From: Escherichia phage teqskov
Length of the DNA: 64,000 nt
Sequence record: NC_054934.1
Direction: 5' to 3' (one strand)
Below, piece by piece: positions 33,946 through 42,445 of this stretch. Position 1 is the first letter of the stretch; each line of letters starts with the position of its first letter. Below the pieces are notes generated by a model. The model was not told where the DNA came from. It made no database searches and worked only from the letters and a program-made list of their open reading frames with translations. Both the position numbers and the translations under genes were made by a program.

Positions 33946-34407
33946 ATGATTATTAATGAAAACTCTTGGCACTATAAATTATTCAAATTGTTTAACGATG
34001 AATGGCAACGACCTAAGACACTATGCGCATATTTTTGGTCTATTGCCATTCCTACATTTTTCGTTTCTATTTTTGGATGTGCTATACTCGTAGGGCTAAC
34101 AATTATTTGTGCAGAAAGCCTACAACGTTGGCTTATTTTTGGTAGTTTATGGACTTTGCTTCCATCAGCATTTATACTTGCGCTTTTGGTTGTTTTACTT
34201 ATTATCGGTTCATTTGTTATTCCTGCACATTTGCGTGAAAAATATAAAGATTATAAATGGAAAAAGGATTATGCTTTACACGTAGAAAATATTGATAGGG
34301 CGTATAAAGGTTTACCTCCTATTCAACCTAAGAAATCGATTATCGTCGAATTTTTAAAAGCTCGTAAAGCTAAAGTATGTCCTGTTATTGAATATAAGGC
34401 TGAATGA
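33946..34407 (+). CDS. membrane protein
   Basis: 153 aa with hydrophobic helices; stop overlaps next ATG. Confidence 0.5.
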   Translation: MIINENSWHYKLFKLFNDEWQRPKTLCAYFWSIAIPTFFVSIFGCAILVGLTIICAESLQRWLIFGSLWTLLPSAFILALLVVLLIIGSFVIPAHLREKYKDYKWKKDYALHVENIDRAYKGLPPIQPKKSIIVEFLKARKAKVCPVIEYKAE

Positions 34408-35417
34408 TGAAAACAGTAATGAAAAGCTATTTTGGTAGTCATCTTTATGGAACTTCTACCCCAGAATCTGATGTAGATTTTAAAGAAATCTTTGTTCCTC
34501 CTGCTCGCGATATTCTTATCGGAAATGTCAAAGAGCACATGAGTAAAAACACTAACAATACATCATCTAAAAACACTAAAGATGATATTGACCATGAACT
34601 ATACAGTCTTAAATATTTCTTTAAATTAGCAGCAGATGGTGAAACTGTAGCATTGGATATGCTTCACACTCCACCTGAACTAGTGGTTAAATCTGATTTG
34701 CCTGATGTGTGGAAGTTTATTCAAGACAACCGTTCTCGTTTTTATACGACTAACATGAAATCCTATTTAGGATATGTCCGCAAGCAAGCTTCTAAATACG
34801 GTGTCAAGGGTTCTCGTTTGGCTGCATTACGCGATGTATTGAAAGTAGTTAATCAAATCCCTGAGCAATGGGTTGATTACCAAGAAGACGGTTCCATTAA
34901 GCAGCGTCGTACTAAAGTTGAAGATATTAAGCATCGTCTTCCAGAAAACGAATTCTGTGAATGGGTGTTCCATAATCATGAGAAAACAGGCCCACAGACG
35001 TTTTACACAGTGTTGGGTCGTAAATATCAGACAACGCTTTCTCTTATTGAGCTTAAGCAGTCACTGAACAAATTAGATGCTGAATACGGTGAACGTGCTC
35101 GTAAGGCTGAAGCCAATGAAGGTATTGATTGGAAAGCACTAAGTCATGCTTGTCGTGGTGGACTTCAACTATTGGAAATTTACAAAACTGGCGACTTGAT
35201 TTATCCACTCCAAGATGCTCCATTTATTCTCGACGTGAAGTTGGGTAAACATCCATTTAAAACAGTTCAAGAGTTTTTGGAAGATGTGGTCGATCAAGTA
35301 GAAGCAGCATCTACTGAAGCTTCTAAGAACGGTATGCAGCAAAAAGTAGACATGAGTTTCTGGGATGACTTCCTTGAGAAGGTCTATCTTGAAAACCACC
35401 GAAGTTATTATAAATGA
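34404..35417 (+). CDS. predicted Pol-beta-superfamily nucleotidyltransferase
   Basis: 337 aa; N-terminal GSHLYGTSTPESDVDF fits G[SG]-x9-13-DxD. Confidence 0.55.
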   Translation: MMKTVMKSYFGSHLYGTSTPESDVDFKEIFVPPARDILIGNVKEHMSKNTNNTSSKNTKDDIDHELYSLKYFFKLAADGETVALDMLHTPPELVVKSDLPDVWKFIQDNRSRFYTTNMKSYLGYVRKQASKYGVKGSRLAALRDVLKVVNQIPEQWVDYQEDGSIKQRRTKVEDIKHRLPENEFCEWVFHNHEKTGPQTFYTVLGRKYQTTLSLIELKQSLNKLDAEYGERARKAEANEGIDWKALSHACRGGLQLLEIYKTGDLIYPLQDAPFILDVKLGKHPFKTVQEFLEDVVDQVEAASTEASKNGMQQKVDMSFWDDFLEKVYLENHRSYYK

Positions 35418-35419
35418 TA

Positions 35420-35444
35420 GGGAGCCTTCGGGCTCCCTTTTTTA
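35420..35444 (+). terminator. rho-independent terminator
   Basis: gggagccTTCGggctccc followed by TTTTTT. Confidence 0.7.
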
Positions 35445-35465
35445 TTTAAATTTTTTCACAAAATG

Positions 35466-35500
35466 GTTTACAAGCATAAAGCTTTGTGGTACTATACAAC
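35466..35500 (+). promoter_or_regulatory. early promoter cassette (PeSL-like)
   Basis: ttttcacaaaatgGTTTACa ... tgGTACTATacaactatcaactgatac. Confidence 0.55.
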
Positions 35501-35529
35501 TATCAACTGATACGGATTTGGAGAATAAA

Positions 35530-36498
35530 ATGAAAACTGTAACTATCAATAAGGGTATCTACTTCGGTAAAGAAATCTCTGGAACTTTTGAGCTCTTAGG
35601 CGAATGGTTCCCAGATAATGCTCCGGTAGATGCACAAGGAGATGGTAAAGTTTTTGTTGAAATTGACGGTAAGCGTCGCGGTGTTTGGGTTTACAAATCA
35701 GACATTTCATATGATGGTGTAAAAGTTGAAGAAGTTAAAGAATCGTATGAAGATATGAAAACCCGCATTAATAAAAGATTTAATGTTATGGGAATGATGA
35801 CGAATGGTATTATTAATGGAAATATTCGTTCATTAATTATCTCTGGCGCAGCAGGTATCGGTAAAACGTATTCTTTAGATAAAGCTTTAAATAAAGCAAA
35901 TGATATTGGATACATTGAATATAAAAGCATTAACGGTAAAATCTCCGGTATCGGTCTTTATGAACAGCTTTGGAATAATCGTGAAGAGAATTCTGTCCTT
36001 TTGATTGATGATGTGGATGTTTTCTCTGATATGGACATTCTTAATCTTCTGAAAGCTGCTCTGGACACTGGAGAGACCCGTAAAGTCTGCTGGAGCACTG
36101 CATCTTCTTACTTGGAAGAAAAAGGCATTGACCGTGAGTTTGAATTTAAAGGAACGATTGTTTTTATCACAAACGTTGACATTGACCGCGAATTAGACCG
36201 TGGTACTAAACTTGCTCCACATTTACAAGCATTAGTGTCCCGCTCGGTTTATTTGGATTTGGGTGTTCACACTAATGAAGAAATTATGGTCAGGGTTGAA
36301 GATGTTATTCTTTCAACTGACATGATGCAAAAGCGCGGTCTTTCTGATGAAGAAACTTATAAAGCATTATCATGGATGAAAGTCAATGTTAATCGTTTAC
36401 GCAATGTTTCACTGCGTACTGCTCTTTATCTTGCTGACTTTATTATGACCGACAAAAATGGTTGGGAAGAAATTGCTGAGGTTACTCTTCTGAAATAA
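35530..36498 (+). CDS. P-loop ATPase (AAA-like)
   Basis: 322 aa from ATG after SD GGAG; Walker A GAAGIGKT, Walker B VLLIDDVD, sensor-like TIVFITN. Confidence 0.55.
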   Translation: MKTVTINKGIYFGKEISGTFELLGEWFPDNAPVDAQGDGKVFVEIDGKRRGVWVYKSDISYDGVKVEEVKESYEDMKTRINKRFNVMGMMTNGIINGNIRSLIISGAAGIGKTYSLDKALNKANDIGYIEYKSINGKISGIGLYEQLWNNREENSVLLIDDVDVFSDMDILNLLKAALDTGETRKVCWSTASSYLEEKGIDREFEFKGTIVFITNVDIDRELDRGTKLAPHLQALVSRSVYLDLGVHTNEEIMVRVEDVILSTDMMQKRGLSDEETYKALSWMKVNVNRLRNVSLRTALYLADFIMTDKNGWEEIAEVTLLK

Positions 36499-36902: not shown

Positions 36903-36904
36903 TG

Positions 36905-36940
36905 GTTTACAAGACTGTTCCTCTGTGGTACTATACAACT
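36905..36940 (+). promoter_or_regulatory. early promoter cassette
   Basis: GTTTACaagactgttcctctgtgGTACTATacaactatcaactac, same core as 61842-61890. Confidence 0.55.
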
Positions 36941-36962
36941 ATCAACTACGGAGGAACACAAA

Positions 36963-37490: not shown

Positions 37491-37545
37491 CCGCTTTATA
37501 CCAAGGATGGTATAATGGTTCTAAGCCCTTTTAATTGAGATTATT

Positions 37546-37953
37546 ATGAAACAGTTGATAATTAAAAGATTGAATTTATTGATATGTTGTTTATGTATAG
37601 TAATTGCATATGGTTATTACGCAATTAATGATTATATGCATTATAAAGATTATGATGTTACTGTAGTTAATACCCTTACAGGAACTCAAGGAAAGGGGTC
37701 TAGTTTATCGTTTATTGCTGTATATGAACTCAAAGACGGTTATAGATTTAGTGAATATATTTCCCCAGAGATGTATTCATCAATAGAAAAAGGCGATAAT
37801 ATTACTGTAAGTTTACGTCCTTTCGACGTAAAACAGACATTGTTTGATAATATTGTTTGGTTCTTTGGAATGGTATTAGTTCAATCTGTGTGTGGTGCTT
37901 ATATAGTCTGTTCTATCTTATTCTGTATATTTAGTAAAATTGAAATTGAGTGA
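37546..37953 (+). CDS. membrane protein
   Basis: 135 aa, N- and C-terminal hydrophobic helices. Confidence 0.5.
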   Translation: MKQLIIKRLNLLICCLCIVIAYGYYAINDYMHYKDYDVTVVNTLTGTQGKGSSLSFIAVYELKDGYRFSEYISPEMYSSIEKGDNITVSLRPFDVKQTLFDNIVWFFGMVLVQSVCGAYIVCSILFCIFSKIEIE

Positions 37954-37960
37954 GGAAAAT

Positions 37961-38851
37961 ATGTCAGTAGTAATTAATAATGTCAATGCAGTAATTAAAT
38001 CTTTAGTTAATAAGAAAATGATGAATGAATGGACTGTACTTCGTCGTGGAGAGCCAGATAAATTTTTTCATAGATTTAACCCAACTTTGGATTTGAATGT
38101 TATTGATAAAGATGTTCATGCAGAAATTTTAGATAAGTTTAAAGTTGATATTGGATTTGGATTAGAAAAACATTTACAGCGAACAAACGGATCTGGAATG
38201 AGTTTATCTAATCGCATTATGAAAGCACTTAATAAAATTGGAGCATTGTCTCGTATTAACGCGAGTGAAATCCTTCGCAATTATAATAAAGGATACGACC
38301 TTTATGGTCGACTAATGCCGAAATTATCATTTGACCAAATGATTGCGGATTTGTGGGAAAATCAACGACGATTATTAGCATTAGGCGCTCGATTAGCTAA
38401 AGGTCTAGATAAACAAATGATTTTTAAGACCAATAATACAGAAGACCTTAAATGCTTTAAATTTAGTATTCGCGGAGATGATTATTACATCAGAGCTCGC
38501 TCTACAGATTATGTTAATATGGGGCATCATCTCTGTTTAGCTTTTGAAGTTTTAAAAGAAGTCGGAACATTAGAATATTCATCTGGTGCAAAATGTCCAA
38601 TTGGTTCAAGTTGTATTTTAATTTATCGCCCGGATGAATCCAGTTCAACTAAATTGCCTACAAAACCTGTACCAGTTCGTAGTAACGAAAAACATTCTGA
38701 ACAAATTGATTATTTTAATAAGCAAATTGAAGAGCTGAATATTTCTATTCAACAGTATGACGATGAAATTTTCAGACTATCTGGATTGAGTAGTAAAGCT
38801 AAATCTGAGCGTGAAAAATTAATTAAAATTGTTGATTTACTTAAATCTTAA
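37961..38851 (+). CDS. hypothetical protein with C-terminal coiled coil (tandem set 1 of 4)
   Basis: 296 aa from ATG after SD GAGGAAAA; track start 37940 is TTG. Confidence 0.5.
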   Translation: MSVVINNVNAVIKSLVNKKMMNEWTVLRRGEPDKFFHRFNPTLDLNVIDKDVHAEILDKFKVDIGFGLEKHLQRTNGSGMSLSNRIMKALNKIGALSRINASEILRNYNKGYDLYGRLMPKLSFDQMIADLWENQRRLLALGARLAKGLDKQMIFKTNNTEDLKCFKFSIRGDDYYIRARSTDYVNMGHHLCLAFEVLKEVGTLEYSSGAKCPIGSSCILIYRPDESSSTKLPTKPVPVRSNEKHSEQIDYFNKQIEELNISIQQYDDEIFRLSGLSSKAKSEREKLIKIVDLLKS

Positions 38852-38859
38852 GGAACACT

Positions 38860-39885
38860 ATGAAAACTCGTTCTCAAATTGAAGATATGGTTCGTAATGC
38901 CAGCTATACTCGTGATGTTATGACATTTTTGTGCCAAAATAATTTAGACCCTGATAAAGTTAATCGTGATATTCACTTTAAGTATATGAATAGCAGTGAA
39001 TGGTTACGTCATTTTGATAAAGCTGGATATATTACACAAATGACTGCTCGTGAGCAGCTCACCGATTTCTGTAAAACTATTGATTATAAAAATCCTCTAT
39101 TTGTTCAAGGCGTCGGTCAGAGTAAGGTTGATTTATCAACAGGATTTTTTAATCCAAATCATTATCGTCTTGAATGGAGATTTATTGCTCTATTCCGTAA
39201 ACAATTAAAGCAAATTTTGTCTACTGCTAGTCGATTAAAAGGCTCTGATATTAACTTAAAGAATTTGAAATTTGATGGTTATACTCTTCAGATGGAAGTA
39301 AGACCGTTAAAAGAAAATAATAGAACTGCACGAATTAGCTTTAAACCTAATACAAAAAATTCTCTTTCAATTTGTGAATGTCTTAAATCACAGTTGACAG
39401 AAGCATTTAAGTATATGGATGTTGTTGCTGCTGTTCAATCTAAGATTTTACCTCGTTTTGAACGATTTAAATTAGACACAACAACATATGAACTTGATAT
39501 GGTTGTTTCATTTAAATATGATTTTTTGAGAAAGGACGAAGTCCCGCAAGAGAAAAAGCAGGAAGTACAAGATAACTTAAATTTAAATTTATCCAATTAC
39601 TTATCAAACGATCCTAAATTTTGGATGTATAGTTCAGGTAATAAAGATGCATGGAAATTTAATAAAGTGAATTTTCTTCCTATTGAAAATCCGAGTCTTA
39701 AACCTGTTGAAAAATGGCACGCGGATGCGATTGAGAAGTCTATCAAGGCAGTAGATGATGAACTCGTTAAAGCTACCAATGAAGTGTTAGAAGCTGAAAA
39801 GATGCTAGAAAAAGCACAAGAAAAAGTCAAAAATCTGACAAAGCAACGTTCTAAACTGAACAATGCACTAAATGCACTAAACTAG
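38860..39885 (+). CDS. hypothetical protein with C-terminal coiled coil (set 2 of 4)
   Basis: 341 aa; N-terminus MKTR; C-terminal 60 aa heptad-rich. Confidence 0.5.
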   Translation: MKTRSQIEDMVRNASYTRDVMTFLCQNNLDPDKVNRDIHFKYMNSSEWLRHFDKAGYITQMTAREQLTDFCKTIDYKNPLFVQGVGQSKVDLSTGFFNPNHYRLEWRFIALFRKQLKQILSTASRLKGSDINLKNLKFDGYTLQMEVRPLKENNRTARISFKPNTKNSLSICECLKSQLTEAFKYMDVVAAVQSKILPRFERFKLDTTTYELDMVVSFKYDFLRKDEVPQEKKQEVQDNLNLNLSNYLSNDPKFWMYSSGNKDAWKFNKVNFLPIENPSLKPVEKWHADAIEKSIKAVDDELVKATNEVLEAEKMLEKAQEKVKNLTKQRSKLNNALNALN

Positions 39886-39914
39886 TTTACTTTGCCACAA
39901 GGATGTGGTATAAT
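39885..39914 (+). promoter_or_regulatory. early promoter
   Basis: GTTTAC, spacer, TGgTATAAT. Confidence 0.55.
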
Positions 39915-39942
39915 GTTCTTACTTTCTACTGAGGAGATTATT

Positions 39943-40944
39943 ATGACTCGTAACGAATATATCAAATCATTCAATAGCGTTATTGATGATAAAGCTATAC
40001 CGATGTTTGGTCAAAATATCATTCTTTCTATTATCAATCAATGGCTCAATAGTGTTGATGCAAGTATTGTTTCTTCTACTAAATTTATTCATGAAATTCG
40101 TAAAATTTCTAGCCGTGTAGATAAAGATGTTATCAAGAAAACTTTTAAAGAGTCTCGTCTTCTTTCATATTTGGTTAATCGGGATATTCTTGGTAATTTT
40201 GGGAAAGAAATTAAACGAACCAAAGATGTAGTAGGATATAATTGGTTCGGTGATGTTAATTCTTATCATCTTAATAATAAAGAAGACCCTGAGAATATTT
40301 TTACTCGTCGTTGGATTAGTAATTTCAGACTTTTCAAAGGACAAATTCTAAAATCAGCTTCTAAATTATGTTATGGCGATTATCGTCAAATTCATCCTTT
40401 GGCTTCTGATATGATTATCGTAAAAGAATATGAGCTTGATGAAAATAAAGTAGCTATTTTTGTGAATTATGGATTTTTTACACCAAACGCTAACCAAAAG
40501 AATATTAATAAATTTTTCTCAATTGCTAGCACTATAACTCGTCAGTTAGAGACTGCATTACTTTGTATGGAAACAGTAGAAAATATTCATACATATCCTT
40601 TTAAGAATATATGCGGATGGGAAGGATATAAAATTGTAATTAGTCTTCGTGAAGTGAAATGTGCTTATTCACCTACTGATAAAGAAATTTATCAACAAAA
40701 ATGTGAGGAAATTGTGAATACTCCTAAAGAAGAAACTACTCTTGAGGAACTAATGGATAATCTTGATGATTCGCCTGAACCGGTAGAAATTCGTCCAGAA
40801 GTTATTGCATTAGAAAAAGCTTATAAAGAAGTTCTAGAAATTTCTAATAAAGCGCAGAAAGAATATGAGCAGGCTAAAAAGATTTGGGAAGAATCCGTTA
40901 ATCGTCTTGATCGTCTTGAACAAGCTTTACAGTTAATTAAGTAA
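39943..40944 (+). CDS. hypothetical protein with C-terminal coiled coil (set 3 of 4)
   Basis: 333 aa from ATG after SD GAGGAG; track start is TTG inside the promoter. Confidence 0.5.
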   Translation: MTRNEYIKSFNSVIDDKAIPMFGQNIILSIINQWLNSVDASIVSSTKFIHEIRKISSRVDKDVIKKTFKESRLLSYLVNRDILGNFGKEIKRTKDVVGYNWFGDVNSYHLNNKEDPENIFTRRWISNFRLFKGQILKSASKLCYGDYRQIHPLASDMIIVKEYELDENKVAIFVNYGFFTPNANQKNINKFFSIASTITRQLETALLCMETVENIHTYPFKNICGWEGYKIVISLREVKCAYSPTDKEIYQQKCEEIVNTPKEETTLEELMDNLDDSPEPVEIRPEVIALEKAYKEVLEISNKAQKEYEQAKKIWEESVNRLDRLEQALQLIK

Positions 40945-40996
40945 TTTAAAGCCAAGGATGGCTCGGAGTATAAATCATTAACCAAGTGAGAAGAAC

Positions 40997-41923
40997 ATGA
41001 AAACTCGTAAACATTATATTGATTATTTTGACAGTCTTATTACTAAACATCGTGATTATCAGAAAGGACATAGAGAAGTAATCAATAATATTCTTCGTGA
41101 TTTTTTAGACTATATTGGATGGGAAAACCATATTTGTAAAGATACACAAAATGCGTATTCACATTCTCTTGGTTCTTTGCTCGAGTGGTTCAAACGTTCC
41201 CGATTACTATCTTCTGTGATAGCTGTTAATAATGTTAAAAAATTTATGTATCCAAGCTACATTGAGACTAATGTATCAAATGCTAGTGTTGTTACATTTA
41301 ATATTATTAACGACGTGAAAAGAACTTATTTAGAAGAATGGTTTTCTAAAGATAGTAAAGAAAAATTTGCTAGTGAATTTTCACACGAATTCAATAATAA
41401 CGTGAATATGCTTTTTAAGCATTCTCGTAGACTGTTTTGTCATGGTGATAACCGTACTATTAATGTGAATGTAAAAGACTGGGTTACGGCTAAATTCACT
41501 CCATCGTCCCAGAATGGACAATTTGAATTGTCAATTATCGTTTGCGCTCCGCACGAGATATATAAAAATCTTCCGTATATGAAACCACGCGAAGCTAATA
41601 AACACAATGAAACTATTAGTTCTTTGGCTTATAATTTGCGCGTGTTATTATCTGATATGGATGTAGTCAAATCCTTTGATGATAATACGAATTATGGTCT
41701 TTCACTGTTTGAAACTAAATTTGTTATTAAATTAAAGGACCCTAGTGAATTTAAACCTACGCCAAAATTCAATCATGGGAATGATACTATGAAAGAAGAA
41801 CGCGAATATCTCAATGCTCGTTTGATTGAAGTTGAAAAACAAATTGAAGAGCATACTAAAGTTCTTAAGGTTTTAACCGCCAAAGCAAATGGTTTACGTA
41901 ATGCTATTGAGGTATTGAAATGA
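40997..41923 (+). CDS. hypothetical protein with C-terminal coiled coil (set 4 of 4)
   Basis: 308 aa; N-terminus MKTR as in 38860. Confidence 0.5.
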   Translation: MKTRKHYIDYFDSLITKHRDYQKGHREVINNILRDFLDYIGWENHICKDTQNAYSHSLGSLLEWFKRSRLLSSVIAVNNVKKFMYPSYIETNVSNASVVTFNIINDVKRTYLEEWFSKDSKEKFASEFSHEFNNNVNMLFKHSRRLFCHGDNRTINVNVKDWVTAKFTPSSQNGQFELSIIVCAPHEIYKNLPYMKPREANKHNETISSLAYNLRVLLSDMDVVKSFDDNTNYGLSLFETKFVIKLKDPSEFKPTPKFNHGNDTMKEEREYLNARLIEVEKQIEEHTKVLKVLTAKANGLRNAIEVLK

Positions 41924-42216
41924 AAAAGCGTCTATTAGAAGACATTGCAGAAGCTTCAGATTTTCCTGAATGGACTCCATGCGCCGGGTTTGATAAAGGA
42001 CTGCTAGTTACTGACGATTTAGATTTTAAACCTCCAGCATGGGATGCCATTATGGCTATGGTTAAACGTCGCGAAAGGGCTTCTAAAAACGTTCCTAATT
42101 GCCCTGAATGTGGAACTGAACAGGTGCAATTGGTCCATTGGCAGACTAGTAATCTTCGTTATAAATGCCGCCATTGTAAACACCGATTTGACCGAGAAGA
42201 AAATGACAAAGCGTAA
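41920..42216 (+). CDS. zinc-ribbon protein
   Basis: 98 aa; CPECG ... CRHCKH four-Cys motif. Confidence 0.5.
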
Positions 42217-42445
42217 AGAATATATGGAGACTGCTGAAAAGGCAGTCCGTGAATTAGCAATAGCGTATTATAATGAACATGGTAAATTTCCTGATAGATA
42301 CAGCGTGCTTAAATCTGCTTTAACTCGTTCATATAAAAATATGCTATCAGAAGTAAGTGATATTATATACAAACATAAAGAACAAACGGGCCAAAGTCTT
42401 GATTACGATGAGACTTTTAAACAAGTACTAGGAATTAAGGAATAA
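42203..42445 (+). CDS. hypothetical protein
   Basis: 80 aa from in-frame ATG (MTKRKEY). Confidence 0.45.

Follow-up and report, generated by a model that had tools for sequence, protein, structure and literature searches.

We found that four consecutive genes in the genome of Escherichia phage teqskov (record NC_054934.1; positions 37,961 to 41,923 of the 64,000-nucleotide stretch analysed here, hereafter the window) are the counterparts of the T4 genes nrdC.6, nrdC.5, nrdC.4 and nrdC.3, and the evidence supports their being a tandem array of diverged paralogues that descend from one ancestral gene, with NrdC.6 as the most divergent member. With a probability of roughly 0.55, we interpret these proteins as a paralogous family of early, non-enzymatic, stoichiometric anti-defence inhibitors of host immune proteins. 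The open reading frames (ORFs) themselves are long-annotated T4 genes and, as such, already known; the novelty lies in showing that the four proteins, along with structurally related ones from other T4-like phages, belong to one diversifying family.

Judging from its nucleotide sequence, the window belongs to the genome of a T4-like phage (Tequatrovirus): the region 37500-42300 shows 94-96% nucleotide identity to Tequatrovirus genomes (545 records), and the genes from nrdC.7 to nrdC.2 are syntenic with those in the annotated records of PP01 and T4, following the T4 order, with nrdC, endonuclease VII and nrdD located 3' of the array. At 93-98% amino acid identity, the four ORFs are assigned as orthologues of the respective T4 genes. 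Their coordinates, sizes and plus-strand orientation (Table 1) are exactly those given in a preliminary description of this DNA, and the peptides quoted there are present, including the MKTR start shared by NrdC.5 and NrdC.3, with YMDVV and DMDVV segments, respectively. The NrdC.5 ORF, which lies between nrdC.6 and nrdC.4, as in T4, matches the DUF7235 family (PF23882) with 409.7 bits (cut-off 30; E value of 1.2e-122), such that residues 1-341 cover the entire model. NrdC.6 matches phrog_2257 (4.1e-152), and PF26899 is present in all 105 of the 105 NrdC.6 homologues; both NrdC.4 (2.6e-169) and NrdC.3 (5.2e-99) match phrog_1435, and PF26897 is assigned to NrdC.4 via its close homologues, which carry this domain.

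Direct comparison of the four protein sequences with BLASTP is nearly silent (E values of 0.009-0.03, the best being 0.009). Divergent orthologues bridge part of this gap; for example, NrdC.4 of phage Bp7 matches NrdC.3 with an E value of 1e-6, and, as indicated above, NrdC.4 and NrdC.3 fall into the same PHROG. Profile-profile alignment with hhalign connects NrdC.4 with NrdC.3 at 98% probability (E 9e-14, 227 columns) and NrdC.4 with NrdC.5 at 90% probability (E 1.5e-6, 168 columns), and in both cases the homologous region lies outside the coiled-coil tail. The links to NrdC.6 are much weaker: 42% probability for NrdC.5-NrdC.6 (E 2.6e-4, 60 columns) and 6% for NrdC.4-NrdC.6 (E 0.006, 163 columns, co-linear). 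Nevertheless, we consider these weak links credible because the registers agree: the chained pairing, from NrdC.4 through NrdC.5 to NrdC.6, coincides with the direct pairing of NrdC.4 and NrdC.6 at 43 of the 53 comparable positions. Furthermore, three motifs are aligned in all four proteins, namely, F-x-x-x-x-L-L-S..., A-S/R-K/R-L-x-x-G-D/S and L-x-x-A-h-x-x-M-D/E-h-V.

Structure models, which cover NrdC.4 and NrdC.6, point in the same direction. The secondary structure elements of the two AlphaFold2 models are co-linear, and, when compared to BFVD with Foldseek, both models retrieve the same targets over their full length with a probability of 1.00 and TM-scores of 0.4-0.5; we attribute the low TM-scores to the flexible multi-part shapes of the models. 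The shared targets are uncharacterised proteins of 300-370 amino acids from phages IME523, PM2, Acj61, fHyAci03, Cronus, Mineola and fHe-Yen9-01, along with NrdC.3 of fPS-65. By sequence, the family is far more narrowly distributed. When the NrdC.4-family profile was run exhaustively against 1.8 billion cluster representatives, it yielded only 7 clusters, including one of the NrdC.3 type (308 amino acids) at 1.4e-7, and no bacterial or distant relatives; a search of viral contigs for related loci retrieved only 5 close relatives; and hidden Markov models of the family detected no members in Acinetobacter phage Ac42, although Foldseek finds relatives in other Acinetobacter phages. Thus, at the sequence level, only T-even phages of enterobacteria possess the family, and at the structure level, it extends to T4-like phages of other hosts. 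Taken together, the profile-profile alignments, the agreement of registers, the co-linear models and the shared BFVD targets argue for common ancestry of the four proteins, in line with the proposal in the preliminary description that they are a paralogous family.

All four proteins appear to share one layout, in which a helical N-terminal part is followed by an alpha/beta core, a proline-rich linker (PTKPVPV, PSLKPVE, SPEPVEIRPE and KPTPK, one per protein) and a C-terminal amphipathic helix, some 45-55 residues long, that ends, in every member, in a similar L-x-x-A/I-h-x-x-L-K motif. In the models of NrdC.4 (predicted local distance difference test (pLDDT) score of 83.8) and NrdC.6 (pLDDT 77.2), six N-terminal helices are followed by a small sheet, two to three helices, a beta hairpin, a long helix, a second hairpin, a low-confidence linker and a long terminal helix, which in NrdC.6 is divided in two (Table 1). 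The tails are poor in proline and glycine, and their heptad a/d score, a crude custom measure rather than COILS, exceeds that of shuffled sequences in each of the four proteins, the observed value being reached in no more than 1% of the 200 shuffled versions of that protein. The best-scoring heptad window lies within the tail in NrdC.6, NrdC.5 and NrdC.4; in NrdC.3, it is internal (residues 198-225), and a run of high-scoring windows extends from residue 263 to the end. The heptad-rich tail noted in the preliminary description thus holds for each protein. We also considered NrdC.8, which has a charged terminal helix, as a potential fifth member and rejected it, given that neither a heptad signal above shuffles nor an hhalign signal was detected.

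Table 1. Members of the nrdC.6-nrdC.3 array in the window, their C-terminal tails and the promoter-like site within the array
Feature	Position in the window	Strand	Characteristics
nrdC.6 orthologue	37961..38851	+	296 aa (amino acids); 98% identity to T4 NrdC.6 over residues 1-259; PF26899 Phage_T4_Y05B; phrog_2257
NrdC.6 tail, residues 241-296	38681..38848	+	heptad score above shuffles; AlphaFold2 helices 242-272 and 278-295; 65% identity across genera
nrdC.5 orthologue	38860..39885	+	341 aa; 93% identity to T4 NrdC.5; PF23882 DUF7235
NrdC.5 tail, residues 283-341	39706..39882	+	highest heptad score among the four proteins (0.85; null, 0.49); 42% identity across genera against 13-35% elsewhere
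Early-type promoter-like site, 5' of nrdC.4	39886..39914	+	(G)TTTACT-17-TG-n-TATAAT; 10/12 consensus positions
nrdC.4 orthologue	39943..40944	+	333 aa; 96% identity to T4 NrdC.4; PF26897 Phage_T4_Y04OP; phrog_1435
NrdC.4 tail, residues 285-333	40795..40941	+	AlphaFold2 helix 285-332; heptad score above shuffles; 61% identity across genera
nrdC.3 orthologue	40997..41923	+	308 aa; 93% identity to T4 NrdC.3; phrog_1435; minority T4/T2/RB51 allele type
NrdC.3 tail, residues 263-308	41783..41920	+	high heptad windows starting at 263-281

No enzymatic motif had been recognised in these proteins at the outset, and the searches bear this out. Searches of Pfam, NCBIfam, PADLOC and PDB profiles with the four proteins produced no significant matches except to DUF-type families: in Pfam, only DUF7235 was detected, for NrdC.5, and no functional family was retrieved from Pfam, NCBIfam or PADLOC. 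Sequence-profile searches of PDB with three family alignments returned only coiled-coil or designed-repeat noise. In the alignments, no polar residue is retained across all four proteins. All four thus appear to be non-enzymatic. Many GenBank phage records label NrdC.3-NrdC.6, as well as other nrdC.N ORFs, as "thioredoxin". We rejected a thioredoxin or glutaredoxin identity: the CxxC motif is present in none of the four proteins, no thioredoxin family of Pfam or NCBIfam is matched, and the predicted fold is different. Because both the CxxC motif and a thioredoxin-family match are missing, "thioredoxin" is a propagated misannotation inherited from the locus name nrdC.N.

The array evolves in a manner quite unlike that of most of its surroundings. 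Within Tequatrovirus, the flanking genes nrdC.11 to nrdC.8, nrdC.1, nrdC and gene 49 encode proteins that are 95-100% identical, with a mean ratio of nonsynonymous to synonymous substitution rates (dN/dS) of 0.01-0.07. The mean dN/dS is 0.19-0.29 for NrdC.5, NrdC.4 and NrdC.3 and 0.11 for NrdC.6; NrdC.5 and NrdC.4 are 88-97% identical within the genus, and NrdC.3 comes in two allele types that share only about 59% identity, the window carrying the minority type found in T4, T2 and RB51. The adjacent nrdC.2 gene (41920-42216), which encodes a small zinc-ribbon protein, is also represented within Tequatrovirus by two allele types (63-67% identity). The allele types of nrdC.2 and nrdC.3 assort independently, and therefore recombination breakpoints must have occurred between these adjacent genes. 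Between genera, identity among the array proteins drops to 23-53%, compared to 78-85% for the products of nrdC.11, nrdC.10, nrdC and gene 49, with nrdC.8 and nrdC.1 being intermediate (62-79%).

Sequence divergence is accompanied by turnover of entire genes. Among the genera compared, the full set of four is present only in Tequatrovirus. Members are lost singly in the other genera: Dhakavirus, Gaprivervirus and one metagenomic relative possess NrdC.6, NrdC.5 and NrdC.4 but lack NrdC.3, and Mosigvirus encodes NrdC.6, NrdC.5 and an NrdC.3-type protein but no NrdC.4. Four intact ORFs are retained in most of the approximately 550-740 sequenced phages; lesions occur in individual phages. In one Tequatrovirus locus (L006, 6971-8003; IMG/VR UViG 2974742932), a frameshift splits nrdC.4 into two ORFs; the same lesion is suggested for T2 and G8 by C-terminal NrdC.4 fragments of 155-158 amino acids that BFVD contains for these phages and, for T2, by a tblastn match in two pieces. 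In the reference T4 genome (L009, NC_000866), the segment 7440-7700, which corresponds to window positions 38735-38851, contains a frameshift near the 3' end of nrdC.6, so that T4 NrdC.6 is annotated as a protein of 275 amino acids ending in ...EELIFLFNNMMMKFSDYLD, and the conserved tail (ISIQQYDDEIFRLSGLSSKAKSEREKLIKIVDLLKS) is continued in a different reading frame. This could mean that the NrdC.6 tail is missing from laboratory T4; alternatively, there is a sequencing error in the record. In a 167,058-base-pair contig, residues 146-270 (approximately) of NrdC.5 are joined, in the same reading frame, to the C-terminal half of NrdC.3 (chimera P0056; the window equivalents are 39295-39670 and 41400-41923), and NrdC.4 is missing; therefore, nrdC.4 was apparently deleted by recombination between paralogues. 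In NrdC.6 of Shigella phage Sf25 (P0122; 378 amino acids), an internal segment of about 80 residues is duplicated in tandem.

Conservation is also unevenly distributed along the proteins. In the three orthologue groups with distant members, which were compared segment by segment, the tail is the best-conserved part across genera (NrdC.4, 61%; NrdC.6, 65%; NrdC.5, 42%), and among the structured segments, conservation is lowest in the alpha/beta core (39%, 33% and 26%, respectively). Altogether, these are early, dispensable and unusually variable genes that undergo rapid, mosaic evolution. The characterisation of the family as diversifying, also part of the preliminary description, is borne out by the raised dN and dN/dS, the 59% identity between the NrdC.3 types, the gene losses, the frameshifts and the chimera.

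The functional evidence comes from T4. A T4 clone with a deletion that removes nrdC.5 fails to plate on Escherichia coli ECOR17 or on MG1655 carrying ECOR17 dsr1, and plating on dsr1 cells is restored by plasmid-expressed nrdC.5 alone; T4 nrdC.5 thus neutralises Dsr1, a SIR2 NADase (PMC9391042). According to a 2026 preprint, Dsr1 shares a tetratricopeptide repeat (TPR) sensor domain with Avs7 and is triggered by the phage major capsid protein (PMC12803255). Because this trigger is a late protein, an inhibitor made early would fit the timing of Dsr1. The NrdC.5 encoded in the window, being 93% identical to that of T4, probably neutralises Dsr1 as well. A literature search for nrdC.3, nrdC.4 and nrdC.6 returned nothing beyond genome annotation, and a search for the DUF and Pfam names and "anti-Dsr1" returned nothing beyond PMC9391042.

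We propose that each of these proteins is built of a fast-evolving globular head (a helical bundle plus the alpha/beta core), a flexible proline-rich linker and a slowly evolving C-terminal amphipathic helix. Under this scheme, the protein would be made early, and its variable head would bind a host defence protein and keep it from firing once a later phage trigger appears; target specificity would reside in the fast-evolving head, and the conserved tail may provide for self-association or a common docking function. NrdC.3, NrdC.4 and NrdC.6 might then each target other defence proteins or other variants of Dsr1/Avs7-type sensors. An extension of this scheme that we regard as quite unlikely is a modular "anti-sensor" platform, in which the tail helix would confer oligomeric avidity and the diversifying head, perhaps imitating the surface of a phage structural protein, would plug the TPR-type sensors of Dsr1, Avs7 and related proteins, with each paralogue or allele type tuned to another sensor variant. 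If so, the related 300-370-amino-acid proteins of T4-like phages infecting Acinetobacter, Klebsiella, Erwinia and Serratia would be versions of this weapon directed at other hosts.

Several observations weigh against the anti-defence interpretation of the entire family. The anti-defence experiments concern NrdC.5 only, and the roles of NrdC.3, NrdC.4 and NrdC.6 are those that we infer; accordingly, the suggestion in the preliminary description that these are host-interaction or anti-defence proteins stands for NrdC.5 and is extrapolated to the other three. Even NrdC.5 might act on Dsr1 by an indirect route. The gene-wide dN/dS is below 1 in all cases, and the variability can be accounted for by relaxed constraint just as well as by positive selection; similar dN/dS values (0.20-0.24) are observed for nrdC.7 and nrdC.2, which encode a membrane protein and the zinc-ribbon protein, respectively. 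NrdC.6 is far less variable within Tequatrovirus (94-99% identity), and its link to the rest of the family consists of the weak profile scores and the shared Foldseek targets with the low TM-scores given above.

An alternative is that NrdC.5 alone is an anti-defence protein and the other members either perform early host-takeover roles, such as binding host regulators or metabolic proteins, or are decaying duplicates of little function. This is a possible but somewhat unlikely explanation. In its favour, function has been demonstrated for nrdC.5 alone; the explanation is also compatible with the frameshifts in NrdC.4 (L006) and in the T4 NrdC.6 tail, which indicate that their loss is tolerated by the phage, as well as with a dN/dS that is raised but does not reach 1, as expected from relaxed constraint. 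However, the persistence of intact ORFs for all four proteins in most of the sequenced phages and the well-conserved tail and motifs across genera in each orthologue group argue for function rather than decay, and similarly variable early accessory genes of T4 have repeatedly proved to be counter-defence genes (PMC9391042).

Another explanation, in our assessment a distinctly improbable one, is that the four proteins are subunits of a single hetero-oligomeric complex, joined by their C-terminal helices and acting together. In line with this, the genes lie side by side in one orientation and encode proteins similar in size, every member has the conserved C-terminal amphipathic helix with its characteristic end, and the tail is the slowest-evolving part, as would be expected of a shared interface. 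Such a complex is disfavoured, given that the members disappear individually (NrdC.3 in Dhakavirus and Gaprivervirus, NrdC.4 in Mosigvirus, the split NrdC.4 in L006 and the truncated tail of T4 NrdC.6), that nrdC.5 alone on a plasmid rescued the deletion phage, in a clone for which the status of the other nrdC genes was not established, and that a conserved promoter-like site divides the array between transcription units. Finally, that four unrelated proteins resemble each other in size and in a low-complexity coiled-coil end by chance is extremely improbable: the BLASTP E value of 0.009 at best, the three separate Pfam families and the low probabilities of the direct NrdC.6 profile links (1-42%) are outweighed by strong profile matches over 170-230 columns outside the tail, by the agreement in register of three independent pairwise alignments, with the motifs aligned in all four proteins, and by the co-linear secondary structure and common Foldseek targets of the two models.

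The promoter-like site upstream of nrdC.4 has GTTTAC on the -35 side and a TG that precedes the -10 hexamer. It is identical in T4 and in six other Tequatrovirus loci, and GTTTAC-N-TATAAT with a diverged spacer occupies the same position, before the last member of the array, in Dhakavirus, Gaprivervirus and Mosigvirus. This conservation, together with the match to the consensus, supports the internal promoter that had been predicted there, a candidate that would split the array between transcription units.

The intergenic regions before nrdC.7 (37491-37545), nrdC.4 (39886-39942) and nrdC.3 (40945-40996) each contain a short hairpin with an AGGA loop (ACCA-AGGA-TGGT, CCACA-AGGA-TGTGG and GCCA-AGGA-TGGC) located directly upstream of a TATAAT or TATAAA box, and in relatives, such hairpins were found at L010 14458, L007 6944 and L008 6944. 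The stem changes between copies and between genera look compensatory; a pattern search for AGGA-loop hairpins beside -10 boxes was uninformative. The hairpin before nrdC.7 is preceded by GCTTTA, which we take to resemble the MotA box found in middle promoters of T4. Before nrdC.10 (35418-35529) and nrdC.8 (36903-36962), a promoter-like cassette (TGGTTTACAAG...TGTGGTACTATACAACTATCAAC) recurs in nearly identical form, and a terminator-like site, a strong hairpin with a T-run, follows nrdC.11 (35419-35438). Among the genes preceding the array, nrdC.11 (34404-35417) matches the RlaP "RNA repair pathway DNA polymerase beta family" nucleotidyltransferase (1.7e-11), and nrdC.10 (35530-36498) encodes a P-loop/AAA-type NTPase with weak STAND-like matches. 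The nrdC.11 gene is much more widespread than the array, being detected in 1503 phage records, including those of Vibrio and Sinorhizobium phages.

Three of these four genes lack an assigned function, even though no lytic phage has been studied better than T4. Paralogy with a proven anti-defence member makes NrdC.3, NrdC.4 and NrdC.6 concrete candidates for counter-defence proteins, and the contrast between variable head and conserved tail hints at the part that could be exchanged or truncated. Structurally related proteins occur in phages that infect Acinetobacter, Klebsiella and other pathogens, which suggests that the family is relevant to the host range of therapeutic phages. The advance is incremental, in that the genes were known and the anti-defence activity of nrdC.5 has been published; the new insight is at the level of the family.

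Among the known systems, the closest is T4 NrdC.5 itself (DUF7235, PF23882; Srikant et al. 2022, PMC9391042), to which the ORF at 38860-39885 is orthologous and of which the other three ORFs are diverged paralogues, differing in that they share less than 25% identity with NrdC.5. A functional analogue is DSAD1, a non-enzymatic phage protein that inhibits the SIR2 NADase DSR2 and, according to the published accounts (PMC10973363, PMC10981675, PMC11087589), likewise counteracts a sensor-plus-SIR2 NADase that becomes active in response to a phage structural protein; it differs in coming from other phages and acting on another defence protein, and it is absent from all sequence and fold search results obtained here. 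Tail terminator and tail completion proteins (lambda gpU, T5 p142, and Mu and SPP1 gp17-like proteins) are also counted here among the closest known systems. The four proteins are already included in the families PF26897 and PF26899 and PHROGs 1435, 2351 and 2257, all of unknown function; among these, PF26897 and phrog_1435 merge NrdC.4 with NrdC.3 and leave NrdC.5 and NrdC.6 as separate families. In contrast, the present analysis unites all four, along with their structural relatives in T4-like phages of Acinetobacter, Klebsiella, Erwinia, Serratia and Pectobacterium, in one superfamily.

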